From sequence record NC_020079.1: 64,000 nucleotides of DNA; one strand, written 5' to 3'. Position 1 is the stretch's first letter. Each line of letters begins with the position of its first letter. Source of the DNA: Escherichia phage phAPEC8. The notes beneath the pieces are model-generated. The model did not search any database and was not told the DNA's origin. It saw only the letters and a list, made by a program, of their open reading frames with translations. Below, piece after piece: positions 5,479 to 61,145 of the stretch. The translations under genes were made by a program, and so were the position numbers.

Positions 5479-5493
5479 TTGACAACAAAACAA

Positions 5494-5520
5494 GGGGCGC
5501 ACCAAGCGCCCTTTCTTTTT
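5494..5520 (+). terminator. Rho-independent terminator, identical to 1-29
   Basis: GGGCGCACCAAGCGCCC + TTTCTTTTT. Confidence 0.7.
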
Positions 5521-7020
5521 GCCCGAACAATGTTGATAGCTTTCGCCTATGAAAAACCGACACAGAACAAAATTGAATAAATCGCGGTATCGAGCTAATC
5601 AACCATTAAACGAATAACCATACCTCCCAGGGTAACAGGCTGTTAGAGAGCCATTTAAAGCGGTTAAAATCGATCAACAACCAACAACAAACCATCAAAA
5701 ACACCCTTTTACCTCCTTTCTAGTGCAATGATAACCATTATCATCTATCCATGTTTATCTATGCAATATAAGTGCATAACTATAATGTTGATAATAGTTC
5801 GCAACAACTAACTAACCAACAACCTAAAACAATAAGCAAACTAATCATAATCAAAGGAATAATAGCAAGATGATTGATAACGACAAACAATCAAACCATG
5901 ATGAATACTAAGCAAGATAACGATAACACGACAAAACAACCAACTAACGAACAATAACAAACGAAACCATTAAAATAACAACTATTAGCAAAATAGTGCC
6001 TGAATGAAATCATTACAAAACGAATCATTCACAGGATCATCATTAGCACGCTATGCCGGACACATAGCGAGCTAATAATAAGCCAACTACACCCCAACAA
6101 TCATAACCATCGGTGATGGTTATTTCTTGTTACTGCGTAGCTTGCAATAATTGCAAGCGTAATTACGCTTACACTTATTGCGCTGGCTTATTATTAGCAT
6201 TATATGTAATTACCAAGATCATAACATTAGCGCAATAACAATAATCATTGTGGTAATTACAAGATGAGATCATTAGCAAGATGAATAATTGCACGTAGCA
6301 ACATGAGCGAATAGCGACAGGTTGCATAGTGTGCACATAGTGTATAAACATACAAGAAAATAAAGGCTAATCTTTTGGGGGCGAATACTATCGCGTAGCG
6401 ATATGTTGAGCACCTTCTCTTAAACGTAAATAAAATCAGAATAATCTTGATTTATTTTAGTTTTTATGTTAATAAACGTTTAAATAATAATCATTCTCAT
6501 ATAAATAATAGTCCGTTTGTCATGAGCGGGATTAGTTGACAGTGTTCCGTCATATGATGAAGTTGCCAACCCCTTGATAAATAAGCCTTTGTGTGATTTA
6601 TAATCAAGTGGCCCACCTTGTCGCTACGTTGGCATGAAGCTTGCATAAGTCATTGAATACGAATGATAATTATTCTCATTCGCATGATATTTGGGAATTG
6701 TCGCTGCGTGGACCTGACGGCCCGAAAATTCGCGTTAAGCACTTCTTACGTATACGCCATGATTTTTGCCATATGATATTGATTCTATTAGATATTCTTG
6801 CCATGATTGCCATGAAACAGGGTGTCCCGAAATAATCTCTCCCCGTAGATATTTTGGGTTACTTTTTATACAAGAGTGGGGTGTCAAAAATAATCGGTAT
6901 ATATGGGATAATTGATAGGAATCCCCTATGATAATTCGATTGTAATTCCCTAAGATTGATCGTATGATGTTGGTGATTGATGATTGCCATGAAAGATGGC
7001 TAACGATGAGAGGAGATTAT
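5521..7020. other. ORF-poor, A+C-skewed, palindrome-rich non-coding region
   Basis: no credible ORF; CAACAA-type low complexity; palindromes GCGTAATTACGC, TTGCAATAATTGCAA; repeated CATTAGCA and TTGCCATGA motifs. Confidence 0.6.
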
Positions 7021-7021
7021 C

Positions 7022-7366
7022 ATGCAAGAGAGTAAAAATGTTCCGTTGAGTAGTTTACGTCTAATGAAGTTTTACAAAGCTTGGCTTGCTGGTGAGGTAG
7101 AAGGTCACACAACGAGTGGCTTGTGCATATGTTTGATTAAGTATGTAGAGGGAACATATCCTGATGAACTGTTACCTCGTCTACAACAGGAGATGAAATC
7201 ACAGTTTATTGGTGCAGGACTGGATTACAATTTCCCGTTTAATGAAGGTGGTTATGAGGAATACACCTTCGAACATAAAAAACATATTTGCCATAAAAAC
7301 AAACATCGTATACAATGGGTGCTAGATAGAATTCAAGATTACGAAGGAGAGAAAAATGACAAATAG
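7022..7366 (+). CDS. paralog family A member 1 (FY..W / GLC / GL..PFN / R..WV.DR motifs)
   Basis: ORF with SD; shared motifs with six other ORFs. Confidence 0.6.
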   Translation: MQESKNVPLSSLRLMKFYKAWLAGEVEGHTTSGLCICLIKYVEGTYPDELLPRLQQEMKSQFIGAGLDYNFPFNEGGYEEYTFEHKKHICHKNKHRIQWVLDRIQDYEGEKNDK

Positions 7367-7724
7367 TATTCCGTTGAGCAGTGCAACATTGCTTCGCTTC
7401 TATAAAGCATGGATTGCCAACTATCCTGCAATGAATCGCACAACGAGTGGCTTATGTGGTTGTCTGGTAGATTATGTAGATGATTTTGTTGGTGAGACAA
7501 CTAGAGAAGAAGATAGAAGATGGCGGGATAGTTTGTTGGACCGTTTGAAATATGAAATGAGGAAACAATTTACATGTGCAGGGCTGGACTATAATCTTCC
7601 GTTCAATGCAGATTGCATGGATTACCTTTCAGAGTGTATAAACTTGGCGTGTCATACCAACACGTTACGTCTTCAATGGGTGAAAGACAGAATTGAAGAT
7701 GCAAATAATGCTTGCATTGAATAA
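7356..7724 (+). CDS. paralog family A member 2
   Basis: LLRFYKAWI, SGLCGCL, AGLDYNLPFN, RLQWVKDRI. Confidence 0.6.
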   Translation: MTNSIPLSSATLLRFYKAWIANYPAMNRTTSGLCGCLVDYVDDFVGETTREEDRRWRDSLLDRLKYEMRKQFTCAGLDYNLPFNADCMDYLSECINLACHTNTLRLQWVKDRIEDANNACIE

Positions 7725-7773: not shown

Positions 7774-7983
7774 ATGAAGAATTTGAAAACTGTCACAATG
7801 TTCTTGACTGATCCTACACGTGTGCAAGCACTGGCTAAAGCCAGCCGTGTAGCTGTAGAATTCCAAAACTTTAAGCCGTCCGTTGTGACAGGCAGTGAAA
7901 CGTGTGTTATCGATTTCATTAACGAATACTTCCGAGGGAATCCGGTTAGTCGTTACTTCATTAAGGGTCTGAAGGATGCATAA
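7774..7983 (+). CDS. hypothetical protein
   Basis: ORF with SD GAGGAG. Confidence 0.5.
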   Translation: MKNLKTVTMFLTDPTRVQALAKASRVAVEFQNFKPSVVTGSETCVIDFINEYFRGNPVSRYFIKGLKDA

Positions 7984-7984
7984 T

Positions 7985-8206
7985 ATGAAACGCATGAAAA
8001 TTCGTATTGAGAATGATGGTGGTTATAAAGGATTGGCACATGCAAAATTTCCACTTGTGTTGGAAGCTACGGTGGAATACAGTGGGCTTGCTCATGTGCG
8101 ATTCTCGAAGATGATGGAAGTGCAGGAATGGTTTTGGGACGAGATAGATGCACGAGAAGGAGAAGATTATGTTTTCTTTCCTCACGAATATAACATTGTC
8201 TATTAA
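7985..8206 (+). CDS. paralog family B member 1 (W.W..E...G.DYVFF motif)
   Basis: C-terminal motif shared with 11486-11707; second ATG chosen to avoid overlap. Confidence 0.5.
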   Translation: MKRMKIRIENDGGYKGLAHAKFPLVLEATVEYSGLAHVRFSKMMEVQEWFWDEIDAREGEDYVFFPHEYNIVY

Positions 8207-8209
8207 AGG

Positions 8210-8458
8210 TTGTGTGCAATGATCACACCACAACAGAATGAAGCCGCAATGGATCTTCTTGATAGTTTGTATTTCGATAATTGGTACTCTGAATGTGAAT
8301 GGATGAATATGCAAACTCTGAAAGAGAAGACAAAAGCGTTGATTACAGTAGATCAATTTCTTGCAGAGACGGAAAGAATGAATTATGATATGGCATCTCG
8401 CGCACGACGCGTTTCCATTTTCAATAAAATGTTAGCATTATGGGGAGGTAGAAAATGA
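8210..8458 (+). CDS. hypothetical protein
   Basis: ORF tiling. Confidence 0.5.
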   Translation: MCAMITPQQNEAAMDLLDSLYFDNWYSECEWMNMQTLKEKTKALITVDQFLAETERMNYDMASRARRVSIFNKMLALWGGRK

Positions 8459-8916
8459 GACAACTATCTATACTAGAAGCGCATGTGCAATGTGTTGTAG
8501 ATTATGTCAAAGAACACTCAAGTTTGTTGAATGTAACCTGTGCAGTGCAAAACGATGTAGGTATTGTCTGTGTGCAACATATCTTATCTGAAACTCGTTA
8601 TGAAGTATTTCGTGCCACGTTGTTTGGATGTGATCGAGTACATGTAAACTTCCTGGACTCCAATTATCGTTATGCTTTAGAAAATATTGATGATTATCTT
8701 CCTTGCTCTCCGACAGGATATGTAATGGTAACAGCAAACGAAGTAACGCCAAACAACAGTGAGCAGGAAGCTTTGTTACGGAAGAAAATACGCCAACTAC
8801 AAGTGTTGAATGAACTGAAAGAAGAGATTGAAAAAGAACTAAAAGAAGATTTTGGTATGCTTCCAAAAGACGCTTTGAAATGGTATGATGAACTAGGAGG
8901 AGAGAACAATGTTTAA
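8455..8916 (+). CDS. hypothetical protein
   Basis: ORF, ATGA overlap, SD GGGGAGG. Confidence 0.55.
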   Translation: MRQLSILEAHVQCVVDYVKEHSSLLNVTCAVQNDVGIVCVQHILSETRYEVFRATLFGCDRVHVNFLDSNYRYALENIDDYLPCSPTGYVMVTANEVTPNNSEQEALLRKKIRQLQVLNELKEEIEKELKEDFGMLPKDALKWYDELGGENNV

Positions 8917-9358
8917 AGAAGGTCATGTCTACCGTTTCCAGGATGAGGATTATATGCGATTATATTCTACCTTTGATAACAGCATTGCTGCTATCATTGG
9001 AGAGAATTTTTTCGAGGTGTTGAGCACTGATACAAATGGTAATATCTTGTCAATGGTTGTGATAGGTATGAGAGACGGTATTATCACTGCTGGTGATGGG
9101 GATCGTTACATAATCAATTCGGCTCATATAGATTATTTTGTTGACGGTGGTGGTCGTGGAAAACCTCAAGAAGAACCCGCAGTGAATTTTAAACACTATG
9201 CTATTGTTAAAGGTATGAATGTCCAACTGGTGTCACATTCTTACGAAGAGATCGCCACAGAAGCAAAAAAGATGAAGGAAGAATACCCAATTTCTACTGT
9301 TGAGATCTATGAGCGTATTGGTGTTGTTAGTATTGAGCCTACTGCGGTAATAAAATAA
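8909..9358 (+). CDS. hypothetical protein
   Basis: ORF, SD GGAGGAG. Confidence 0.55.
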   Translation: MFKEGHVYRFQDEDYMRLYSTFDNSIAAIIGENFFEVLSTDTNGNILSMVVIGMRDGIITAGDGDRYIINSAHIDYFVDGGGRGKPQEEPAVNFKHYAIVKGMNVQLVSHSYEEIATEAKKMKEEYPISTVEIYERIGVVSIEPTAVIK

Positions 9359-9367
9359 GGAGTTATT

Positions 9368-9805
9368 ATGTTCAAAGTTAATGCTGTTTACTGTTTCAAA
9401 AGTAAAGCTGCCTGTGAAGCTTTCTCTATGATCTCTGATGAAAATTTCAAAATGGCAGCTTTGATTGAAGGGTCTTGTTTCCGCGTCGAAGATGTTAGTG
9501 AATCAGGGTCTGTTTGCTCATTGACTTTATTGGACAGCGGGGATATTATTGAAGCTGGACAGTATCCGTTCAGAAGTTGGGAGATATTGTTAGCTCGCGG
9601 AGAGCGTAACTTTTTTATGTGTGTGTCTGCGGGGGAAGTTGTGAAAGAAACTAAGGATGTTTCTGTTTACAATTCTGAATTTATAAGTTATAGTGAGTAT
9701 CAACATCTGGAAGGCATTGTTGGTCACTTGTTATCTCTGATTGACGTTGAATGTGACCTGCCTGAATCATTGAAAGAAGAGTTGAAAGCATTAGATCTGT
9801 TATAA
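9368..9805 (+). CDS. hypothetical protein
   Basis: ORF, SD AAGGAG. Confidence 0.55.
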   Translation: MFKVNAVYCFKSKAACEAFSMISDENFKMAALIEGSCFRVEDVSESGSVCSLTLLDSGDIIEAGQYPFRSWEILLARGERNFFMCVSAGEVVKETKDVSVYNSEFISYSEYQHLEGIVGHLLSLIDVECDLPESLKEELKALDLL

Positions 9806-9832
9806 TGTTTCGCACAACGAAAGGAGAATAAG

Positions 9833-10132
9833 ATGAATCTGACCGAACAGTTACGCCGTATTGCAAAAGAAGCTTCCTTCAACTTCCCTGTTGAAGAAGT
9901 GATCGAGACATGTTTTGCTGAAGCACGAGCGGGAAACTCTTCAAGAAATTTCACGCCATCTGATTTTGGTCTGGATAATTCCCCTACCCACCCAGGGGAG
10001 ATCTACAATCAGGTGAAGTGGATGGATGAAGCAGTAGCAATTCTTCGTGAGCGTGGACTTATTGTTTATAAAGAAATGGATTTGAACGGAGCATACGAGT
10101 GGATCACTATTGATTGGTCGGAGGTGAAATGA
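9833..10132 (+). CDS. hypothetical protein
   Basis: ORF, SD AAGGAG. Confidence 0.55.
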   Translation: MNLTEQLRRIAKEASFNFPVEEVIETCFAEARAGNSSRNFTPSDFGLDNSPTHPGEIYNQVKWMDEAVAILRERGLIVYKEMDLNGAYEWITIDWSEVK

Positions 10133-10341
10133 TGGTTACTATTACATTGACAGTTACACAAGAGCAAGCAGAAGAATTGCGTGACGCAGTGGCATACATG
10201 GGACGTTCTTATTATATGCCTCATAAATCTCAAGATGTTTTTGCTACAGCCGTTGAGAAAGCTTTAAACAAATATCGAGAAACTCATGCCGTTCCTAAAG
10301 TATCAGCAGAAGAGTTTGGCACTTGGCACGAAGTTCACTAA
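10129..10341 (+). CDS. hypothetical protein
   Basis: ATG after GGAGGTG; track start 10114 is TTG. Confidence 0.5.
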   Translation: MMVTITLTVTQEQAEELRDAVAYMGRSYYMPHKSQDVFATAVEKALNKYRETHAVPKVSAEEFGTWHEVH

Positions 10342-10351
10342 GGAGGTTTCG

Positions 10352-10585
10352 ATGAAAGGTAACAAGATGAAAGTTAATCAGGTACCAAGCGCATACACTT
10401 TGTGGCTTGCGCGAGCGTTACACCAGACGATCAAAAACCCTAAGAAGCCAATGAAGAGCGGGAAGAAGTTTATGTCTAAGGGCAAAACAACCTTTGGCTT
10501 CACTCGTATGTCTGTTAAGATGAAAAGGCTGGGGTACAAGCCAAACTACGCTCGTTACCCTTCCGAATACAACTGGTTTGACTAA
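10352..10585 (+). CDS. small basic (Lys-rich) protein
   Basis: internal ATG with SD AAGGAGG. Confidence 0.5.
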   Translation: MKGNKMKVNQVPSAYTLWLARALHQTIKNPKKPMKSGKKFMSKGKTTFGFTRMSVKMKRLGYKPNYARYPSEYNWFD

Positions 10586-10598
10586 AAGGAGAAAGATT

Positions 10599-10775
10599 AT
10601 GGCTACTTTTCAACAATTGAAAGATGTTTCACGTTTAGTAAGAAAAATCCGAGAAGCAGACGCTGCTGTGCGGAATGCACTAACACCAGCAGAGCGTGAA
10701 GATCTTGAAGAGGAGGTGAAAACAGCCGAGAATGCTTTTGCTGTGTATCTTTCAACACTGCATACGGGAGGCTAA
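10599..10775 (+). CDS. hypothetical small protein
   Basis: ATG with SD AAGGAG. Confidence 0.5.
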   Translation: MATFQQLKDVSRLVRKIREADAAVRNALTPAEREDLEEEVKTAENAFAVYLSTLHTGG

Positions 10776-11090
10776 ATGTCAGAGGAACTTAAAGAATTTT
10801 ATCAAGCATATCATAACTGGCTGTTAGCTGGTGCTCCAGACAATAATCCTTTCTGGCATGATAAAGGTTTGTGCAGTTGCCTCTATCTTTGGTCTGGTGG
10901 TTATGATGATCTAAATTATGAAATGCAAATGCAATTCCGCGAAGCAGGATTGTCTGAAGAATACCCGTTTGATGACGGAGACTGGTTTAAATATGATTTT
11001 GCACAAAGAAACGGGCTATTGCATTTGAATGCTGCCCGTATAAAATGGGTAAAAGATCATGCTACACAGGAGGATGTGCAATGCCAATAG
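10776..11090 (+). CDS. paralog family A member 3
   Basis: EFYQAYHNWL, KGLCSCL, AGLSEEYPFD, RIKWVKDH. Confidence 0.6.
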   Translation: MSEELKEFYQAYHNWLLAGAPDNNPFWHDKGLCSCLYLWSGGYDDLNYEMQMQFREAGLSEEYPFDDGDWFKYDFAQRNGLLHLNAARIKWVKDHATQEDVQCQ

Positions 11091-11281
11091 TGTTTAGTTT
11101 CTTGGTAATTGTTATGGTTGTTCTTTTCGCGGCATGGCTTTGGGATTTTGACCCAGGAGCAGCGCAGCAAAGAGCTACAGACTGGAAAGAACAATGTATT
11201 GTGCTCAAACATGAACGAAATGCGGAGAAATTTCTTGACCTGGAGTGTGATCGCCTTGTAAGATACAAGCAAGATAAATAA
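11081..11281 (+). CDS. small membrane protein
   Basis: ATG with SD AGGAGG; N-terminal hydrophobic helix. Confidence 0.5.
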   Translation: MPIVFSFLVIVMVVLFAAWLWDFDPGAAQQRATDWKEQCIVLKHERNAEKFLDLECDRLVRYKQDK

Positions 11282-11295
11282 CCTTGAGGTGCAAA

Positions 11296-11484
11296 ATGAT
11301 AATTGAGATTAAACTTGAATATGCTGGGGCTGTTGCTCTGATCGCACAAATGCTTGGAGCAAAGATTGAAGAAGTGTATATCAATGCCTGGAGCGTAGAG
11401 ATTGATGTTCCTATGGACAACATTGCTAATCGCTTGCTGGTGGCAGAGTGTGAACGCACCAACATAATCTACAAAGGAGCATAA
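11296..11484 (+). CDS. hypothetical small protein
   Basis: ATG with SD GAGGTG. Confidence 0.45.
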   Translation: MIIEIKLEYAGAVALIAQMLGAKIEEVYINAWSVEIDVPMDNIANRLLVAECERTNIIYKGA

Positions 11485-11485
11485 T

Positions 11486-11707
11486 ATGAAAATTAGAGTT
11501 TGTGATGTATTGGGTTATGTTGGTTTTGAGAATGTTCAGATTCCTTTTATTGTTGAAGCACATCTTGTTAGTGATGATATGACAACATTCTTTGTTACGA
11601 TAGAAGAAATGTCCAAAGTTGAGGGATGGGAGTGGTTTGAAGAAGATGTTTGGGAAGGTTGTGATTACGTATTTTTCTCTGACGAAGTGAATGTTCTTTC
11701 GGAGTAG
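11486..11707 (+). CDS. paralog family B member 2
   Basis: EGWEWFEEDVWEGCDYVFFSDEVN matches 7985-8206 C-terminus. Confidence 0.5.
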   Translation: MKIRVCDVLGYVGFENVQIPFIVEAHLVSDDMTTFFVTIEEMSKVEGWEWFEEDVWEGCDYVFFSDEVNVLSE

Positions 11708-13766: not shown

Positions 13767-14039
13767 ATGAATAAAGATCGGTTTCTTTCTTTAGTCGCGG
13801 AAGCTCCTTTTGATGTTCTTGGGGTGAGATTATGGAAAGACAGAAACTATGGGTTAGATGTTCAAACATACTCTCTTTGGTTGGTTGGGGAACACAGCTT
13901 AGATGAAAGCTTGTGCATGGGTAGGGATTCTCGTTCCCTCTGTTTAAAGTTCAGAAGCTTAGAACGCGCAAACAAAGAGCAAGAAAAACTAACGAGGTGG
14001 CTAAATGAAAACAAGCGCAAGGTTGATGGAGTTTTATAA
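13767..14039 (+). CDS. hypothetical protein
   Basis: ORF after promoter TTGACA 13707-13712; SD AAGGTGG. Confidence 0.5.
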   Translation: MNKDRFLSLVAEAPFDVLGVRLWKDRNYGLDVQTYSLWLVGEHSLDESLCMGRDSRSLCLKFRSLERANKEQEKLTRWLNENKRKVDGVL

Positions 14040-14331
14040 AATTTATCTAGCATGGATTGATGTTGGTGCTCCTGATGGTAAACCTTTTCGGCGGGATTGC
14101 GGTTTGTGTGCCAACTTATTCGACTATGTGCACGCGGATGGCTACAATCCCCTTATAACAACCTTGTCAGATGAAATGCACGCACAGTTTTACCACAAAG
14201 GGTTGAGTCAAGAATTACCCTTCAATGAGAACTACGATGCATATGTCTTAGAATCAGATGCAGAGGTATGTCACCTGAATGTGGACAGGATTAATTGGGT
14301 AAGAGATCGTATTGCAGAGGAGGATGAATAA
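14005..14331 (+). CDS. paralog family A member 4
   Basis: MEFYKIYLAWI, CGLCANL, KGLSQELPFN, RINWVRDRI. Confidence 0.6.
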   Translation: MKTSARLMEFYKIYLAWIDVGAPDGKPFRRDCGLCANLFDYVHADGYNPLITTLSDEMHAQFYHKGLSQELPFNENYDAYVLESDAEVCHLNVDRINWVRDRIAEEDE

Positions 14332-14558: not shown

Positions 14559-14773
14559 TCATGTGGATTGTGCGTCTTAAGTATGATGGCAAGTTTCCGT
14601 GGGAGAAAGATGTTTGTGCTTGTGATTCGGCAGCACATGCCAAAGCAGCGGGTCAGGCAGTAGTTGACATGTATAACAACACTTCCGTTGATCCAGAAAT
14701 GGCAGGTGTTACAATGAGCATGTTCACTTACTATTCTTTTGAGGTTTACTATCATGAAGGAGAGTGGAAATGA
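14555..14773 (+). CDS. hypothetical protein
   Basis: ORF, overlaps neighbours by 4 nt. Confidence 0.5.
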   Translation: MIMWIVRLKYDGKFPWEKDVCACDSAAHAKAAGQAVVDMYNNTSVDPEMAGVTMSMFTYYSFEVYYHEGEWK

Positions 14774-15090
14774 GCGAAGAACTATTAACATTTTACCGCA
14801 CGTATTTGGCATGGTTGGAAGCTGGTGCTCCTGAAGGCGAACCGTTCACCCGTTGCACAGGTTTGTGCTCGAACCTCTATGATTTTTACGATATGGGTGA
14901 AAGCGAACGATACGAACCCGTACTGGATGAAATGCATGAGCAGTTCTACCACAAAGATTTGGTTATGGTGTTGCCTTTCAACAGTAATTTTGGAAAGTAC
15001 ACCTTAGAAGCGGAAAAAAGCCGTTGTCATTTGAATGTGGATCGTGTGAACTGGGTAAAAGAACGTGTAGCAGAAGAAATAAATAGTTGA
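14770..15090 (+). CDS. paralog family A member 5
   Basis: MSEELLTFYRTYLAWL, TGLCSNL, LPFN, RVNWVKERV; ATG chosen over GTG 14764. Confidence 0.6.
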   Translation: MSEELLTFYRTYLAWLEAGAPEGEPFTRCTGLCSNLYDFYDMGESERYEPVLDEMHEQFYHKDLVMVLPFNSNFGKYTLEAEKSRCHLNVDRVNWVKERVAEEINS

Positions 15091-15144: not shown

Positions 15145-15699
15145 ATGAAAAAGTTTATTTGCACCCGTTCCACTAACAGTGATATCCTTGTAGGTAAGGT
15201 TATCAAAGGAGAACTCTTCCATGCAAACGGTAAGAAATATATTCTGCTGAAAGATTCTTTCAACGGGGAATATCCGCGCTGCACTTTCTTCAATTACAAC
15301 ACTCCATTTGCTTTAGAAGGAGATGCTTGGGACTGGGCTGAACTTCATCCTTTCTGTGAAGATGGACAGACAGAAGAGCAGGAAGAATCTACGGGAAGTT
15401 TACGTGATAAATTGCGTAATAAAGCACTGCAAGCAAATTCCCATTTTACTGAAATGGTAGACGCCGTTCTATTAGAGATTGAAGATTGTGCGGAACAAGG
15501 GAAGTTTGAAAAATACTTTGAACCTTCCAGTTTTGGTTTGTGCAATAACCCTTCTTCTTATGAACAGATAAGTGAACAGAAAAGAGGGGCAAATGTTGTA
15601 GCTACAATACTACGTGCAAAAGGTTTGGATGTAACATTGGCAACCGCAGAGCACAGTATTTTTGGGATTATCAAACACATCATTATTAGTTGGAACTAA
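15145..15699 (+). CDS. hypothetical protein
   Basis: ORF after promoter TTGACA(15087)/CATAAT with inverted repeat GACAG..CTGTC in the spacer. Confidence 0.55.
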   Translation: MKKFICTRSTNSDILVGKVIKGELFHANGKKYILLKDSFNGEYPRCTFFNYNTPFALEGDAWDWAELHPFCEDGQTEEQEESTGSLRDKLRNKALQANSHFTEMVDAVLLEIEDCAEQGKFEKYFEPSSFGLCNNPSSYEQISEQKRGANVVATILRAKGLDVTLATAEHSIFGIIKHIIISWN

Positions 15700-17306: not shown

Positions 17307-17729
17307 ATGAAACAAGAAAATGAATCTGTAGATCACTTAATCATGCTGTCAGCCCTTTTTGCCGGATGGGACGTATTTTTTGAAAATTTGTTCAATTCTT
17401 CTACAGATGGTTCCGATTTTATGCGCCAGTTTAAACGACGAACTGTTGAGGACTATGCTTTCTATTCAGGTCGGATTGAAAAAGGTTACGAAGATACAAA
17501 TACAACACTCACCATTAAAGTTTTAGATGTGATGTTTAGTGTTATAGATGCTATCGACGAAAGTCTTCCGATCCTAGACAATTGTAATACGAAAGCCTAT
17601 GTTTACAAAATAGCTCGTGCTTATGTGTCTGCAAACAGTTGTCTTCTTTCCACCCAGATTGCCGTGAACAATCTTGCCAACTTGTTTGATGAAGGAGAAA
17701 CTTTTTATGACAATCGATTTGAAGTGTAA
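17307..17729 (+). CDS. hypothetical protein
   Basis: ORF, SD TAGGAGAGG. Confidence 0.5.
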   Translation: MKQENESVDHLIMLSALFAGWDVFFENLFNSSTDGSDFMRQFKRRTVEDYAFYSGRIEKGYEDTNTTLTIKVLDVMFSVIDAIDESLPILDNCNTKAYVYKIARAYVSANSCLLSTQIAVNNLANLFDEGETFYDNRFEV

Positions 17730-18072
17730 GAGGATTCTTTTAGATTTCTATAATAATTGGTTAGAACACCTCCGTCTCTTTCCAAGAGAAAGTGGTTACG
17801 CTGATGTTGGCTTATGCCGAGGTCTGCGTATGTATATAAGTGATGAATTTCGGGCAGAGCATTCTTTAGCATATTCTGTTTATGGTATGCAATTAGCCAG
17901 TTTTGAAAACGCTGGCTTAGATACAACTTTCCCATTTAACACAGCAAAATCTTTTGATCAAGAGTGTAAGGAAAAACGTTGCATGTTTAATGAAAAACGT
18001 GTACAGTGGGTTAAGGATCGAGTTAAACAACTGGAACAAGAGTTGGATTTCTTCTATGATGAGGCAGAATAA
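17707..18072 (+). CDS. paralog family A member 6
   Basis: LLDFYNNWL, VGLCRGL, AGLDTTFPFN, RVQWVKDRV; ATG after GAAGGAGAA. Confidence 0.55.
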   Translation: MTIDLKCKRILLDFYNNWLEHLRLFPRESGYADVGLCRGLRMYISDEFRAEHSLAYSVYGMQLASFENAGLDTTFPFNTAKSFDQECKEKRCMFNEKRVQWVKDRVKQLEQELDFFYDEAE

Positions 18073-18960: not shown

Positions 18961-19011
18961 TAGTTGCACCCCGTTCTGCGGGGTGTTATTGTATATGTAA
19001 AGGAGGCGCTA

Positions 19012-19350
19012 ATGTATTACACTGAAGACTACATATTGTATAACTTTTTTAAAGGTTGGTTGAAATGGGCGGAACAAGCTCCTGTCGGAGATTGTGTTTT
19101 TCCTTGGGATTCTCGTCAAGGCTTGTGTCGTTGTTTGGAAGATTGGCTTATAACCACAAACTACAATTCAGAAACTAAGAAATCTACATCAAACAGATTA
19201 AAAATGTTGTTTGAAGAAGATGGTTTAGATCCAATTTATCCTTTCGGTGAGGAAAGTTTCCACAATGGTCTTTTCCTTGGCACTCAACATTATGATAAAG
19301 ATCGTGTAGATTGGGTAAAAGAAAAGGTAGCACAGTATGAATGGGGTTAA
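19012..19350 (+). CDS. paralog family A member 7
   Basis: FFKGWLKW, QGLCRCL, DGLDPIYPFG, RVDWVKEKV; ATG after AAAGGAGG. Confidence 0.55.
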   Translation: MYYTEDYILYNFFKGWLKWAEQAPVGDCVFPWDSRQGLCRCLEDWLITTNYNSETKKSTSNRLKMLFEEDGLDPIYPFGEESFHNGLFLGTQHYDKDRVDWVKEKVAQYEWG

Positions 19351-37131: not shown

Positions 37132-37973
37132 TACCTCTCCTTATTAAGTAATACTGCTAAAGACTGTTCAATACCTTTATTTAAATCTGATTTTGTAAGA
37201 TAGTGACTGGTTACTAGTTGTGACTTCATCGGACGTGCTGCTGGAGCATTATAGGTTGAAGCTGATACCGCCGATATCTTAACAGGTTCTGGCATCTGTG
37301 TCAAGATCTTTTCCGCAAACTCCGCCCAAGAAATAAGATGGCTTCCTGCAAAATGGTAAGTCTTAACAGACCTTGACCAACCTGTTCTTAATACTTCAAA
37401 AATAGCTTCTGCTAAATCTGGAGCATATGTTGGACAAGAGAACTGATCAGCAACAATAATAAAATCACGTTGTCCATCATTATAGCGAGACAACATGGTT
37501 TTTAGAAAGTTATTTCCAAATTCGCTATATACCGAGGCTGTTCGAATAATATATGCATTTGGGTTAACTCCTCGCACCATTTTTTCACCAAGTTCTTTCG
37601 TATACCCATAATTGTTTATTGGGTTAGGTGTAGTATCTTCAAAAATAGGATGAGAATAATTAAAAATATAGTCTGTAGAAATATGCACAAAATCAATTTT
37701 AAGTTTGCTGCACACTGCCGCAATATTTGCAGGTCCATACGCATTAACAGCCAAAGCAGTAGCAAAATCATGTTCTGCTTTATCTACAGCCGTATAAGCG
37801 GCGCAATTAATAACACCATCTACATAATCTTCAATAATAGCGTTTCGCACAGCTTCAAAATTTGTAATATCTACACGTTCTTTAGGATAAATTAAAGATA
37901 CATTTGAAGGAGCCACTTTACGTAAAGCTTGTCCCAGTTGTCCATTACCGCCCAATACCAGATATGTTAGCAT
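37131..37973 (-). CDS. rmlD: dTDP-4-dehydrorhamnose reductase
   Basis: N-terminal GGNGQLG Rossmann motif; size and operon context. Confidence 0.8.
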   Translation of the reverse strand: MLTYLVLGGNGQLGQALRKVAPSNVSLIYPKERVDITNFEAVRNAIIEDYVDGVINCAAYTAVDKAEHDFATALAVNAYGPANIAAVCSKLKIDFVHISTDYIFNYSHPIFEDTTPNPINNYGYTKELGEKMVRGVNPNAYIIRTASVYSEFGNNFLKTMLSRYNDGQRDFIIVADQFSCPTYAPDLAEAIFEVLRTGWSRSVKTYHFAGSHLISWAEFAEKILTQMPEPVKISAVSASTYNAPAARPMKSQLVTSHYLTKSDLNKGIEQSLAVLLNKER

Positions 37974-38533
37974 ACACCCTCGCTACGTAACTGTTGAAAA
38001 GATTTAGCCATTGCATCTTTTGTTGATAGAATAGGTTTAAAACCTTCGTCAAAAATCATATCGAAGCCCCAATCGATCCCTATATCAGGATCATCCCAAC
38101 GTAAACTTTGTTCACTAGAAGGGTCGTATGGAGTTGTGCATTTGTATTCAAAGATAGCATCCATACTCAAAACTATAAAACCATGAGCCAAACCAGGCGG
38201 AAGCCAAAACTGCGTATGGTGTCGTGCACGAAGAACAACACCGTCCCAAGCACCGTAAGTTGGACTATCTTTACGTAAATCTACAGCGAAATCCAATACT
38301 TCCCCACTTACACAACGAACTAGCTTACCTTGCGGGTTATTTGTTTGAAAGTGCATTCCTCGCAAAACACCGAAGTTTGATTTAGACATGTTATCTTGAA
38401 CGAAAGTTTGTCTACCAATAATATCTTCGTATTTTTGTTCATTATATGTTTCTAGAAAGAAACCACGATCATCTTTATAAACGTCTGGTTTGATAATTAC
38501 CGCACCTTCAATTTTTGTTTTTTCTACTTTCAT
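37967..38533 (-). CDS. rmlC: dTDP-4-dehydrorhamnose 3,5-epimerase
   Basis: [35 protein letters not shown]; start at internal ATG. Confidence 0.9.
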
Positions 38534-39408
38534 TTTCTCTCCGCTAATTTGAGTAGGTATTGCCCGTACTCTGTTTTCTTCAGTGAGTTTCCATGATACA
38601 CCAAAGTCTCTAAAGAAATCCACCCTTTTTTGAAAGCAATTTCTTCCAAGCACGCAATCTTCAATCCTTGACAGTTCTCAATAGTCTGCACGAATTGACC
38701 AGCTTCCATCAGACTGGCGTGTGTTCCTGTGTCAAGCCAAGTAAATCCTCGTCCGAGAACTTCCACTTGTAACTTCCTGTCTTCTAGGTAGCTGCGATTG
38801 ATATCAGTGATCTCCAGTTCTCCACGCGCGGAAGGGGTTACTTCTAATGCACGTTGAATAACAGAGTTATCATAGAAATACAAACCTGTGACAGCATAAT
38901 CTGATTTAGGATTTTCAGGTTTCTCTTCAATAGAAATAGCTTGACGATTACTCCCAAATTCAACCACACCGAATCGTTCAGGATCTTTCACCAAATACCC
39001 GAAAATACAAGCTCCGCCCCAAACATCTACCATCTCACTGGCGTTAATCAGTAGTTTACCAAAGCTTTGTCCGAAGAATAGGTTGTCACCTAAAATAAGA
39101 GCAACAGAGTCTTCTCCGATAAAATCTTTACCTATGATGAAAGCTTCCGCAAGACCTCGTGGCTCGGATTGGATTGCGTAAGTGAGTTTTATCCCAAACA
39201 TAGACCCATCTCCGAGAAGATACTCAAAGTCTTCCTGATCACCTGGTGTGGTGATGATTAAAATATCCTTAATGTCAGCCAACATCAATACCGATAAAGG
39301 GTAGTAGATCATGGGTTTGTCATACACAGGGAGCAATTGCTTGCTCACACTGCGTGTTACCGGATGAAGGCGGGTTCCACTTCCTCCCGCCAAAATAATA
39401 CCTTTCAT
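38530..39408 (-). CDS. rmlA: glucose-1-phosphate thymidylyltransferase
   Basis: [18 protein letters not shown]. Confidence 0.9.
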
Positions 39409-39416
39409 AACCCTCC

Positions 39417-40409
39417 TTAAATTTTCTCACTCCACCATTGAGGGTTGTTTAAGTACCATTCAATCGTTGAGTAGAGATCTTGTTCAAATGTAGAGTTTGC
39501 ACTCCAGCCCAGTTCAGACTCTATCTTAGAAGGATTGATTTCATAACGCAAGTCATGTCCTTTACGATCTTCAACAAAAGTTATCAAGTTGGAAGAAGGG
39601 TAGGTTACTGCTTCTGGATGTACAGTATCCATATAGTCACAAACCATATAGATGATCTCCATATTGGTTTTGGGATTACGTGTTCCAACATTATACGTTT
39701 GACCTGGTTCTCCACCTGTTGCCACTTGAAGAATAGCTCGCGCATGATCCTCAACAAAAAGCCAGTCTCGCACCTGGTCGCCTTTACCATACACCGGAAT
39801 CTCTTTATTCGTCAAGATACTTGTGATGATTTTTGGGATCAGCTTTTCTGGATGTTGATAAGGCCCAAAGTTATTGGAGCAGTTGGTTATCACAACAGGC
39901 AAATCGTAGGTGCGGTGCCAAGCTTTCACAAGATGGTCAGATGCTGCCTTAGACGCACTGTACGGGCTTGAAGGGGCATAAGCTGTCTCTTCGGTAAAGG
40001 GAACGCCAGAGTCTGCCATATCGCCGTACACTTCGTCTGTGGAGACGTGTACGAACATCTTCAGTTTATTTTTTGGGAGGAGCCTTGCAGCTTCCAATAA
40101 ATTGTATGTACCGATAATATTGGAGTCGATGAAAACTCGTGGATTCTTGATAGAATTATCCACATGACTTTCTGCCGCTAAGTGAATGATGAAGTCAGGA
40201 TTGCACTCTACTACTAAACTTTTGACCTGGGTTTCGTTTGCCAAATCTGTCATGCTTAGTTTAACGTGAGTGATATCGCCTACATTCTCAATATCTGCTG
40301 CATAGCCCATCTTATCAACGACAAAAACTTCGTTATTAGGATCTTGACAAAGAGAGCGCACCACGGCACTCCCAATAAAACCAAGACCACCTGTTACCAG
40401 ATAGCGCAT
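39417..40409 (-). CDS. rmlB: dTDP-glucose 4,6-dehydratase
   Basis: [16 protein letters not shown]; extended SDR fold. Confidence 0.9.
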
Positions 40410-40418
40410 CAGTTCTCC

Positions 40419-59142: not shown

Positions 59143-59214
59143 GGCCCTGTAGCTCAATGGGAGAGCTGTCGGCTCATAACCGATAGGTAGCTGGATCGAA
59201 ACCAGCCAGGGCCA
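59143..59214 (+). tRNA. tRNA-Met (anticodon CAT)
   Basis: manual cloverleaf: acceptor GGCCCTG/CAGGGCC, loop CTCATAA, T-loop GATCGAA, CCA encoded. Confidence 0.75.
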
Positions 59215-59219
59215 CCAAC

Positions 59220-59291
59220 GTCTTTATGGTGTAATGGATAGCACAGGAGTCTTCTAAACTCTTAGTCAAGGTTCGATTCCTTGTAAAGACA
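59220..59291 (+). tRNA. tRNA-Arg (anticodon TCT)
   Basis: acceptor GTCTTTA/TAAAGAC, loop CTTCTAA, T-loop TTCGATT. Confidence 0.7.
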
Positions 59292-59528
59292 CCAGAACAT
59301 TTTAACATGAATTAGCTCAAGTGATTTGAACCCACTACTGATCATGGTGGCAGAGAATGAGGCAAGTATGTCAGACATTATAAACAAAGGCCACGGTTAC
59401 ATTAGAAGACATAAATGCTCGAAGAGCACCGTTCGTGGAGAACGGGGGTTGGTGGAGTCACCATTCATGGTAAAATGTTTTAAAAAACTATTGACAACTA
59501 ACATTATTTTATGTTAGATTATAAGTAT

Positions 59529-59616
59529 GGAAGGGCAAATCGACGTGGCGACGAAAACGGTCTTGAAAACCGCCGAGCTTGAAAGAGCCTTGGGAGTTCG
59601 ACTCTCCCTCCTTCCG
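59529..59616 (+). tRNA. tRNA-Ser (anticodon TGA), type II
   Basis: long variable arm; loop CTTGAAA; T arm GGGAG-TTCGACT-CTCCC. Confidence 0.7.
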
Positions 59617-59623
59617 CCAGATT

Positions 59624-59706
59624 GGTAGATTGGTGAAATGGTAGCCACGACAGTTTGCTAAACTGTAGTCGGAAACGGCGTGTAGGTTCGAGTCCTACAT
59701 CTACCG
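59624..59706 (+). tRNA. tRNA-Ser (anticodon GCT), type II
   Basis: acceptor GGTAGAT/ATCTACC; stem ACAGT/ACTGT loop TTGCTAA; long variable arm. Confidence 0.7.
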
Positions 59707-59836
59707 CCAAGTTGTTTTTAATGTAGCGTTGCGGCTACTTACTTTAGCAGAGTAAATCTTCGGCAAGTGGCGGTAACCACTTTACCGATACCGCATAGTC
59801 AGTAAGGCGAATACTGGCTACTTTAAAAACAATTTT

Positions 59837-59917
59837 GTGAGATTGGCAGAGTGGTCGATTGCGGGGGACTGTAAATCCCTTCTGAAAGGCGCGGTGGTTC
59901 GAATCCATCATCTCACA
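59837..59917 (+). tRNA. tRNA-Tyr (anticodon GTA), type II
   Basis: acceptor GTGAGAT/ATCTCAC; loop CTGTAAA; long variable arm. Confidence 0.7.
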
Positions 59918-59926
59918 CCAAATTAA

Positions 59927-60009
59927 GATGAGTTGGCTGAATGGTTTAAGCGGCGGACTGTTAATCCGTGTTCGAAAGAACGATATAGGTTCAAATCCTA
60001 TACTCATCG
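59927..60009 (+). tRNA. tRNA-Asn-like (anticodon GTT) with 15-nt variable arm
   Basis: anticodon arm GCGGA-CTGTTAA-TCCGT matches E. coli tRNA-Asn; extra GTTC-GAAA-GAAC hairpin in variable region. Confidence 0.55.
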
Positions 60010-60019
60010 CCAGAATTAT

Positions 60020-60096
60020 GGACTTGTAGAGTTAAGGTAAACCCCCAGTCGCCAAGAGGCTTCTGGAATTGCAGGTATCGAATCCTGCCGAGTCCC
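60020..60096 (+). tRNA. tRNA-like element, non-canonical, anticodon unresolved
   Basis: 7-bp acceptor GGACTTG/CGAGTCC and T-arm-like GCAGG..CCTGC, but no canonical anticodon arm and 8-nt T-loop. Confidence 0.3.
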
Positions 60097-60102
60097 AGCT
60101 TT

Positions 60103-60174
60103 GCTCCTATAGTATAATGGCTATTACAACGGTTTTGTAATCCGTGGATCTCTGTTCGATTCAGAGTGGGAGCA
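60103..60174 (+). tRNA. tRNA-Thr (anticodon TGT)
   Basis: acceptor GCTCCTA/TGGGAGC; loop TTTGTAA; T arm CTCTG-TTCGATT-CAGAG. Confidence 0.65.
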
Positions 60175-60452
60175 CCAACACAACATTAAGGGCACTGTGA
60201 TTGATCGTCGTATCCTGTGCACAAGGTCTGTTCGAAAGACAGTGTTCTTAGTATTGTGTTGATCACACAAAAAGAGTTACCTGAAACTTGACCGGAGTAG
60301 GGTTGGATGGGGCAAAAGAAGAAGCGGCTCTCCCATCGACAGCAACGAAGAATAATATTTGACTTTGGTTTTGTATTATTTTAAGTTAGCTTACCGAACG
60401 TAGGGCTAGTCACCCAACGGGATACTCGTCACTGTCCCACTCAATAAAACTA

Positions 60453-60483
60453 TTGACAACCAATAGTAAAATGTAGTATAGTA
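60453..60483 (+). promoter_or_regulatory. promoter (AACTATTGACAA ... TAGTAT) upstream of tRNA-Gly
   Basis: -35 TTGACA, 16 bp spacer, -10-like hexamer. Confidence 0.5.
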
Positions 60484-60493
60484 AAGATGTAGG

Positions 60494-60564
60494 GCGTTCT
60501 TGGTGTAGCGGTAGCATTCCGTCCTTCCAAGTCGGCGGCACGAGTTCGATCCTCGTAGAACGCT
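60494..60564 (+). tRNA. tRNA-Gly (anticodon TCC)
   Basis: acceptor GCGTTCT/AGAACGC; D-loop AGCGGTAG; loop CTTCCAA; T arm ACGAG-TTCGATC-CTCGT. Confidence 0.7.
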
Positions 60565-60666
60565 CCAAATTATTTAATAAAGGGTTGCCAGAAAACTTTC
60601 TCTTTTACTCATGGTTTTCTCCTTCTCTCACACCTCTTCTGGTTGCCCTTCATTAAATGATTTATT

Positions 60667-60739
60667 GGTTTGTAGTGTAGTCCGGTAGCACACGACACTT
60701 TGACTGTCGTAGGTTTGGTTCAAATCCAGACAGACCAGC
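60667..60739 (+). tRNA. tRNA-Gln (anticodon TTG)
   Basis: acceptor TGGTTTG/CAGACCA; stem CGACA/TGTCG loop CTTTGAC. Confidence 0.7.
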
Positions 60740-60834
60740 CATATAACAAAGGTGAGTCACTACCTCAAGTGTGAAGTTAAAAACGAGGAGCCGCCGAACA
60801 CTTTCTTTTGCGGCGTACCTTTAGAATGTTATGA

Positions 60835-60908
60835 CGGAATTTAGCTCAGTTTGGTAGAGTGTACGCTTTGGGAGCGTATTGTCGCAGGTTCGAATCCTGC
60901 AATTCCGA
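60835..60908 (+). tRNA. tRNA-Pro (anticodon TGG)
   Basis: acceptor CGGAATT/AATTCCG; D arm TAGCTCAGTTTGGTAGAG; loop TTTGGGA; T arm GCAGG-TTCGAAT-CCTGC. Confidence 0.8.
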
Positions 60909-60917
60909 CCAATTAAA

Positions 60918-60988
60918 TGTTTCGTAGTTCAATGGTAGAACCCACGACTGATAATCGTGAGATACAAGTTCGATTCTTGTCGAAACAA
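60918..60988 (+). tRNA. tRNA-Ile (anticodon GAT)
   Basis: acceptor TGTTTCG/CGAAACA; stem CACGA/TCGTG loop CTGATAA. Confidence 0.75.
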
Positions 60989-60993
60989 CCAGT

Positions 60994-61062
60994 TTCCCGT
61001 TAGACTTACAGGATAAGAGTTCCACAATTTATTGTGACGCTGGTTCGAATCCAGCACGGGAT
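60994..61062 (+). tRNA. degenerate tRNA-like element (possible tRNA pseudogene)
   Basis: 6-bp acceptor TCCCGT/ACGGGA and canonical T arm GCTGG-TTCGAAT-CCAGC, but anticodon region is a palindrome with no 7-nt loop. Confidence 0.3.
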
Positions 61063-61069
61063 ACATAAT

Positions 61070-61145
61070 AGCGGGATAGAGGAGTCTGGTCGTCCTCGCC
61101 AGTTTCATATGCTGGAGATCATTGGTTCAAATCCAATTCCCGCCT
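61070..61145 (+). tRNA. tRNA with CAT anticodon (Met, initiator or Ile-lysidine)
   Basis: D arm GAGG..CCTC; stem CCAGT/GCTGG loop TTCATAT; A1-C72 mismatch. Confidence 0.6.

Follow-up and report, generated by a model that had tools for sequence, protein, structure and literature searches.

Two small open reading frames (ORFs) of Escherichia phage phAPEC8, lying 3.3 kb apart in one long same-strand array of small unknown genes, raise the question of whether they descend from one ancestor, how far back they parted and what their products may do. The DNA analyzed was a stretch of 64,000 nucleotides of sequence record NC_020079.1 (the window). The two ORFs, named here copy A (7985-8206; translation MKRMKIRIENDGGYKGLAHAKFPLVLEATVEYSGLAHVRFSKMMEVQEWFWDEIDAREGEDYVFFPHEYNIVY) and copy B (11486-11707; translation MKIRVCDVLGYVGFENVQIPFIVEAHLVSDDMTTFFVTIEEMSKVEGWEWFEEDVWEGCDYVFFSDEVNVLSE), had been presented in an original prediction, made from the letters alone, as a pair of small paralogs with a common C-terminal motif and as a sign that the early block of the genome was built by repeated duplication of small genes. 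Both were found at these positions on the + strand, and the C-terminal strings quoted for them agree with the translations, where they are followed by the tails IVY* in A and VLSE* in B. Sequence comparison shows that A and B are genuine paralogs within a single small-domain family, separated by an ancient divergence.

The two proteins were identical at 26 of 71 positions (37%) by BLASTP, with E=3e-14. The Smith-Waterman score of the pair was 115, compared to a mean of 26 for shuffled sequences (standard deviation 5, maximum 60), which gives z=17.7, and none of 5000 shuffles reached 115. Alignment against shuffled controls was the check proposed for the pair and, since the similarity lies far above chance, the pair can be accepted as real. 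When the halves were scored separately against shuffles, the N-terminal one gave z=9.2 and the C-terminal one z=9.4. So, the homology assigned to the C-terminus is significant there, but it is not confined to it and runs along the full length. The C-terminal motif itself is present in both proteins, but its spacing had been written one position short; as corrected, it reads W-x-W-x-E-x-D-x-x-E-G-x-D-Y-V-F-F-x-x-E-x-N, with 13 of 22 positions identical. The part of it that extends to the whole family is Y-x-F with the following E, while W-x-W belongs to the subfamily level only, and the phiWec190 orthologue of copy B carries C-E-I at that position.

The similarity of A and B extends to the start of translation, where both display the context GGA(T)GCATAAT-ATG-AAA. 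In the whole window, positions 7978 and 11479 are the only places with the 13-mer GCATAATATGAAA, and a nearly identical context, GGAGCATAAC ahead of ATGAAA, precedes gp129 of the Justusliebigvirus phage alia. Other in-frame ATGs are available for copy A at 7976 and 7994; its start was placed at 7985 because the ribosome-binding site (RBS) and spacer found there are common to copy B and alia gp129. Counterparts of A and B with the same lengths are annotated as hypothetical proteins in phAPEC8_ev052. The ratio of nonsynonymous to synonymous substitution rates (dN/dS) was 0.130 for copy B versus phiWec190, at dS 1.47, and 0.125 for copy A versus the same phage (57 codons), reaching 0.30–0.35 for copy A versus copy 1 of Klebsiella phage ZCKP1 and versus alia (0.354 for alia). 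With values of 0.13–0.35 between orthologues, A and B are coding sequences under purifying selection. An antisense ORF of 131 amino acids (7961-8356, - strand) covers the whole of copy A; it was regarded as spurious because the substitution pattern fits the + strand frame.

Concerning the family to which the pair belongs, the profile of PHROG 15322 was matched end to end by copy A (E=7.9e-42, residues 4-73 on profile positions 1-72 of 73) and by copy B (E=3.2e-44, residues 1-73 on positions 1-73 of 73). PHROG 13367, like 15322 of unknown function, was matched more weakly, by the N-terminal 47 residues only of A (E=2.2e-8) and by the full length of B (E=2.3e-7). All 43 diverse relatives scanned matched PHROG 15322, and 41 of them also PHROG 13367 (best E=6.8e-31). 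Judging from these profiles, PHROG 13367 is a sister family and not the home family of the pair. When 1.84 billion representative proteins were searched with a profile, 49 representatives were obtained at E<=1e-3 (the relatives are designated below by handles such as P0010), two of which, P0042 and P0054, were rejected as spurious repeat proteins. The domain comprises about 70 residues and is acidic, with the signature MKI+L..GGY.GL..V.FPV.VEA....V......G......Y.F...E.EV. In the family alignments P20 is invariant and V37, Y61, F63 and E67 are nearly so. The median isoelectric point (pI) of 46 stand-alone members is 4.44, and copy B contains 17 acidic (D+E) versus 3 basic (K+R) residues. Records of more than 100 phage genomes already list the two proteins as hypothetical, and PHROGs group them into clusters; the present analysis contributes a predicted fold, a description of the architectures and a division into A and B subtypes.

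A search for further members, which had been suggested as a check, gave no third copy in the window, whether a hidden Markov model (HMM) of the pair, phmmer or family HMMs (one of 53 sequences and a domain-only one of about 95 sequences) were run, in each case on six-frame translations. The complete genome of Phapecoctavirus 536P1 (149,471 bp), scanned whole, contains exactly two members, orthologues of A and B. Among the phage records listed by tblastn, each had at most two places of similarity, except ZCKP1, which had three.

Four architectures were recognized among the relatives: the domain standing alone; a tandem pair of domains (P0033, P0035); the domain followed by a linker and a conserved helical C-terminal module of about 55 residues, an arrangement seen in many relatives (P0009, P0013, P0018, P0021 and others); and two domains with the helical module (P0022). 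The helical module, of pattern R-K-x-x-L-x-x-L-[IV]-x-x-Y-G ... E-I-x-K-M-I-E-E-G-V, was found neither in the window nor in 536P1 and, among cultured phages, it occurs in four Klebsiella phage records only. It gave no significant match in Pfam, where DUF7438 remained below threshold (E=0.0036, 18 bits versus a cut-off of 25), and in the PDB it met designed coiled coils only, none of them significant. In P0022, one domain is nearest to P0029, P0016 and P0021, on the side of the tree where B is located, and the other to P0012, P0019 and P0018, on the side of A, a fusion that hints weakly that the two subtypes can act together. Another composite is the 141-residue metagenomic protein P0025, in which an A-like N-terminus, ending at ...VEGWF, is followed by the last 60 residues of the homologue of ORF 8909-9358. 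Its halves correspond to positions ~7976-8140 and ~9170-9358 of the window, which implies that a relative with a deletion of about 1 kb exists.

The fold was predicted for copy B with AlphaFold. With an alignment of 53 sequences the predicted local distance difference test (pLDDT) was 95.1 and the predicted template modelling score 0.82, compared to a pLDDT of only 43 with 6 sequences. The model contains strands at residues 2-5, 21-24, 34-37, 61-64 and 68-72, with a short helix at 39-42. A long conserved loop (GGY-G...FP) follows strand 1, and another long loop, which carries W-x-W...EG, precedes strand 4. By its topology, the model is predicted to be a five-stranded SH3-like small beta-barrel without a close solved relative, a group that includes SH3, KOW, the C-terminal domain of retroviral integrase, PsaE and OapB. 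Foldseek against the PDB returned SH3 domains at E>=0.42, with every fold score below significance, and neither A nor B matched the canonical Pfam profiles of SH3, KOW or LSM. The best matches among predicted viral structures reached template modelling scores of 0.7–0.83, and all were uncharacterized small proteins from ZCKP1, RB49, Merlin, VpV262, T1-like and other phages.

The relatives of this region are mainly phAPEC8-like E. coli myophages of the genus Phapecoctavirus, Stephanstirmvirinae. The segment 7000-12000 of the window matched 122 phage records, nearly all phAPEC8-like, and was 97.7% identical to Escherichia phages vB_EcoM_ESCO37 and REC. At >=60% identity, B-type orthologues were found in 68 phage records and A-type copies in 53. 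Copy A is neatly missing (window 7980-8213) from vB_EcoM_3A1_SA_NWU and frameshifted in some relatives (P0006-P0008), and ZCKP1 has two adjacent, deeply diverged A-type genes, so that the copy number at locus A is 0, 1 or 2 among relatives. Copy A is thus accessory and dispensable in natural isolates, and the comparison of these genomes indicates that the family moves as single-gene cassettes, which phages acquire, lose and exchange. The region is also mosaic, as the identity of ZCKP1 to the window falls from about 98% near B to only 70–77% near A.

The age of the split was approached by a neighbour-joining (NJ) analysis of 42 domain sequences, where A and B were sisters in 0 of 200 bootstraps. 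Copy A grouped with P0010 (71%) and, more loosely (43–47%), with ZCKP1 copies 1 and 2, alia gp129, P0014 and P0012. Copy B grouped with P0003 (91%) and, more loosely (43–55%), with P0009 and P0031, which are represented in the tree by the N-terminal domains of two-domain proteins. Copy A is 66% identical to P0010, 50–66% to metagenomic proteins and about 51–52% to alia gp129, and copy B is 56%, 46% and 45% identical to the N-terminal domains of the two-domain proteins P0009, P0011 and P0031, respectively. Synonymous sites are saturated between A and B (proportion of synonymous differences, pS, 0.85) and likewise between the tandem A-type copies of ZCKP1. Justusliebigvirus has a single copy, of A type, with 33–39% identity to B. 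A and B are therefore not each other's closest relatives, as in-paralogs should be and, considering that they are never sisters, that their synonymous sites are saturated and that proteins of other phages resemble each of them more than the other copy does, their split either is older than the genus or came about through an exchange from phage to phage.

A duplication within Phapecoctavirus, or in this very genome, would agree with the closeness of A and B on the same strand of one block, with their identical RBS, spacer and start context, which the window has at no other place, with the two adjacent A-type copies of ZCKP1, according to which local duplication occurs at locus A, and with the further paralog sets of the same block. 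Even so, it is improbable, since the NJ tree already points to proteins of other genera lying between A and B, the synonymous sites are saturated even between the ZCKP1 tandem copies, the sister genus Justusliebigvirus has the A type only, and the flanking genes are not homologous. A segmental duplication of two genes was considered and discarded, as the upstream ORFs 7774-7983 and 11284-11484 have no similarity and belong to different PHROGs; the flanking genes being unrelated, no multi-gene segment was copied. It is possible, though rather doubtful, that one copy, most likely B, was recombined in from a phage lineage with the two-domain form and later lost the helical module. The nearest relatives of B outside the genus are indeed N-terminal domains of two-domain proteins, the B type is found among cultured phages in Phapecoctavirus only, while the A type is also found in Justusliebigvirus, and the region is mosaic and contains gene-sized indels. 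However, common descent within the subfamily accounts more readily for the initiation region that A, B and alia gp129 share, sequences of 70 residues do not separate import from ancient duplication with differential loss, and the looser subclades have a moderate support (43–55%) because the sequences are short, which counts also against the reading of the pair as ancient paralogs. On the whole, a recent duplication in situ fits less well than either an ancient duplication with later birth-and-death turnover or the import of one copy from another phage, and between these last two the ~70-residue length of the proteins does not discriminate.

These results bear on the claim that the early block was built by repeated duplication of small genes. 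The true paralogy of A and B, the occurrence of other paralog sets and the copy-number change at locus A speak for it, but a duplication of this pair within the genome or the genus is not supported. Given the several paralog sets and the changes at locus A, it can be said that gene families shaped the block. The coordinates of these genes are collected in Table 1. The largest set, the family A of the original prediction, comprises seven paralogs or more in the window, whose pairwise E values range from 5e-41 to 3e-5; the member that was scanned (7022-7366) matched PHROG 2510, of unknown function. The counterparts in phAPEC8_ev052 of the adjacent ORFs 8909-9358 and 9368-9805 are annotated as 'goF mRNA metabolism modulator of RB69' and 'RNA metabolism moderator of RB51'.

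Table 1. Location of copies A and B, of their translation-initiation regions and of other paralog sets in the window.
Feature	Coordinates	Strand	Remarks
Copy A gene	7985..8206	+	73 codons + stop; acidic protein, pI 5.25; PHROG 15322, A subtype
Copy B gene	11486..11707	+	73 codons + stop; strongly acidic, pI 4.05, net charge ~-14; PHROG 15322, B subtype
Translation-initiation region of A	7971..7984	+	gaaGGAtGCATAAT ahead of ATG; overlaps TAA stop of upstream gene
Translation-initiation region of B	11474..11485	+	aaGGAGCATAAT ahead of ATG; overlaps TAA stop of upstream gene
Family A members	7022-7366, 7356-7724, 10776-11090, 14005-14331, 14764-15090, 17674-18072, 18964-19350	+	
Paralog pair	9833-10132 and 15145-15699	+	99-residue ORF versus C-terminal 100 residues of 184-residue ORF: 32% identity, E=3e-8
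Adjacent remote paralogs	8909-9358 and 9368-9805	+	Both phrog_3710; BLASTP E=7e-4 over N-terminal 85 residues

Outside the genus, members were found in diverse surroundings. In a Pantoea lambdoid prophage, the member follows closely on the O/P replication genes, within the nin region, and in a Providencia prophage it lies between recombination genes (exo) and integrase. In ~43-kb PolA phages, members are in the early operon, and one comes right behind a Tad2-like gene, whereas a 49-kb phage carries its member in a small-gene island between the terminase and portal genes. A 153-kb metagenomic phage has two two-domain members one gene apart. The family is thus scattered through accessory small-gene regions of Enterobacterales phages, including large lytic myophages, ~43–49-kb phages and lambdoid prophages. 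At L007 5690-5953 and L008 2229-2492, on contigs of ~43-kb PolA phages, the Tad2-like gene, of the anti-Thoeris family PF11195, is located directly upstream of a distant member; it is missing from the corresponding position of the syntenic phage L013.

Concerning the function, the explanation preferred as a whole, by a small balance of probability, is that of anciently diverged paralogs that serve as a protein-binding module. The descriptive part of it, namely real, expressed-type genes, ancient paralogs of PHROG 15322/13367, with a predicted SH3-like barrel and cassette turnover, can be taken as nearly certain, while the mechanism, a protein-binding module directed against a host or defence protein, is proposed only tentatively. 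According to it, each copy would be a small stoichiometric protein-binding module that might sequester or inhibit a host or defence protein during infection, and the divergence of A and B may have given them separate partners or made them function as a pair. This binder model is in agreement with the small, acidic, aromatic-rich barrel, with its two conserved loops, and with the accessory placement, the dispensability of one copy and the cassette-like turnover. Moreover, the acidity (median pI 4.44) favours protein binding over the nucleic-acid roles typical of KOW/Sm barrels. A more elaborate version, which we consider unlikely, would make of the family an undescribed SH3-like phage domain, not represented in Pfam, acting as a modular counter-defence or host-takeover binder, in which the A and B types would co-act, either by forming a heterodimer or by holding a single target with two arms, and would have been split into two genes in Phapecoctavirus; it is suggested by the natural fusion P0022, which joins one domain of each subtype to the helical module, a possible effector or oligomerization part.

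Several results weigh against the binder explanation. Apart from scattered chance matches, no Pfam family was found at E<=0.1 for A, B or the 43 relatives, NCBIfam gave no match, and the PADLOC defence-protein models gave 0 families at E<=1. The sequence-profile search of the PDB returned only chance haemagglutinin matches (E ~0.8), and none of the family members scanned in the libraries has an experimental or annotated function. In the literature, nothing was found on the PHROG identifiers, on peptide strings of the family or on transcriptomics or anti-defence of Phapecoctavirus. The promoter and terminator scan of 5–16 kb was near the expectation from shuffles, with 38 promoter-like sites versus 31.2 (standard deviation 5.6) and 11 terminator-like sites versus 6.6 (2.7). 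No neighbour gene recurs across the contexts of the distant members, and the support from a counter-defence neighbourhood consists of the single Tad2-like gene.

Two other roles were weighed against protein binding. Small barrels such as KOW, Sm/Hfq and OapB bind nucleic acids, and A and B could in this way modulate host or phage transcription or translation, with the goF-like 'mRNA metabolism modulators' annotated among the neighbouring genes in one relative as a favourable point. However, the strong acidity (pI 4.05 in B, in addition to the low median of the family) and the alignments, devoid of a conserved basic patch, make such a role quite improbable, and the fold scores were all below significance. 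Still less probable is an accessory role in the virion or its assembly, as small decoration, chaperone or scaffolding-type barrels. The distant member between terminase and portal genes would suit it, but other members are in nin, exo–integrase and replication-proximal regions, A and B lie in an array of small unknown genes, the PHROG scan of ten neighbouring genes in the window gave only families of unknown function and no structural-gene family, and copy A is dispensable in natural isolates. The protein-binding module is the preferred role of A and B, with the tentative character stated above.

Some observations were made elsewhere in the window. Directly upstream of the small-gene block there is an ORF-poor stretch of about 1.5 kb (~5515-7020), preceded by a strong terminator-like hairpin (5492-5514); its repeats are unremarkable and it gave no Rfam match. 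Similar unannotated gaps are found upstream of the homologous blocks of alia (L002 1855-3676) and ZCKP1 (L009 9644-11186). Far from A and B, 11 transfer RNA genes are clustered at 59143-61145 on the + strand (Rfam RF00005, 50–72 bits). On the - strand, 37967-40409 contains three ORFs that by eye resemble dTDP-sugar enzymes (RmlC-, RmlA- and RmlB-like), and the 1.9-kb segment with the RmlA- and RmlB-like ORFs (38542-40414) has no counterpart in the otherwise ~98–99% identical 536P1.

Small paralogous genes without a known role abound in large lytic phages and, as a genome feature, the A/B pair is routine: ordinary ancient paralogs of an already catalogued, uncharacterized phage accessory family. 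It resembles family A (PHROG 2510) in having several diverged copies dispersed in one same-strand block, but family A has seven copies in the window, whereas the A/B family has exactly two per genome and is spread over more unrelated phage types. What is gained is the fold, from a confident model, the signature, the architectures, the natural knock-outs of copy A and the copy-number variants and, with these in hand, a functional test of A and B is cheap. Small acidic phage inhibitors of host or defence proteins do exist, such as T7 Gp2, Ocr, Tad2 and the anti-CRISPRs. A and B differ from them in that no sequence similarity to any family of the searched libraries and no fold similarity to solved structures was found, and no characterized anti-defence protein was matched in the PDB sequence and fold searches. 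Another difference is that nearly the whole genus has copy B, whereas counter-defence genes tend to be specific to strains. By analogy, A and B are like these inhibitors in their length of ~70 residues, in their acidity, in their location in accessory or early arrays, in the presence/absence polymorphism in close relatives and in the cassette-like turnover. If the family does bind a host or defence protein, the SH3-like scaffold would join the list of phage inhibitor folds.

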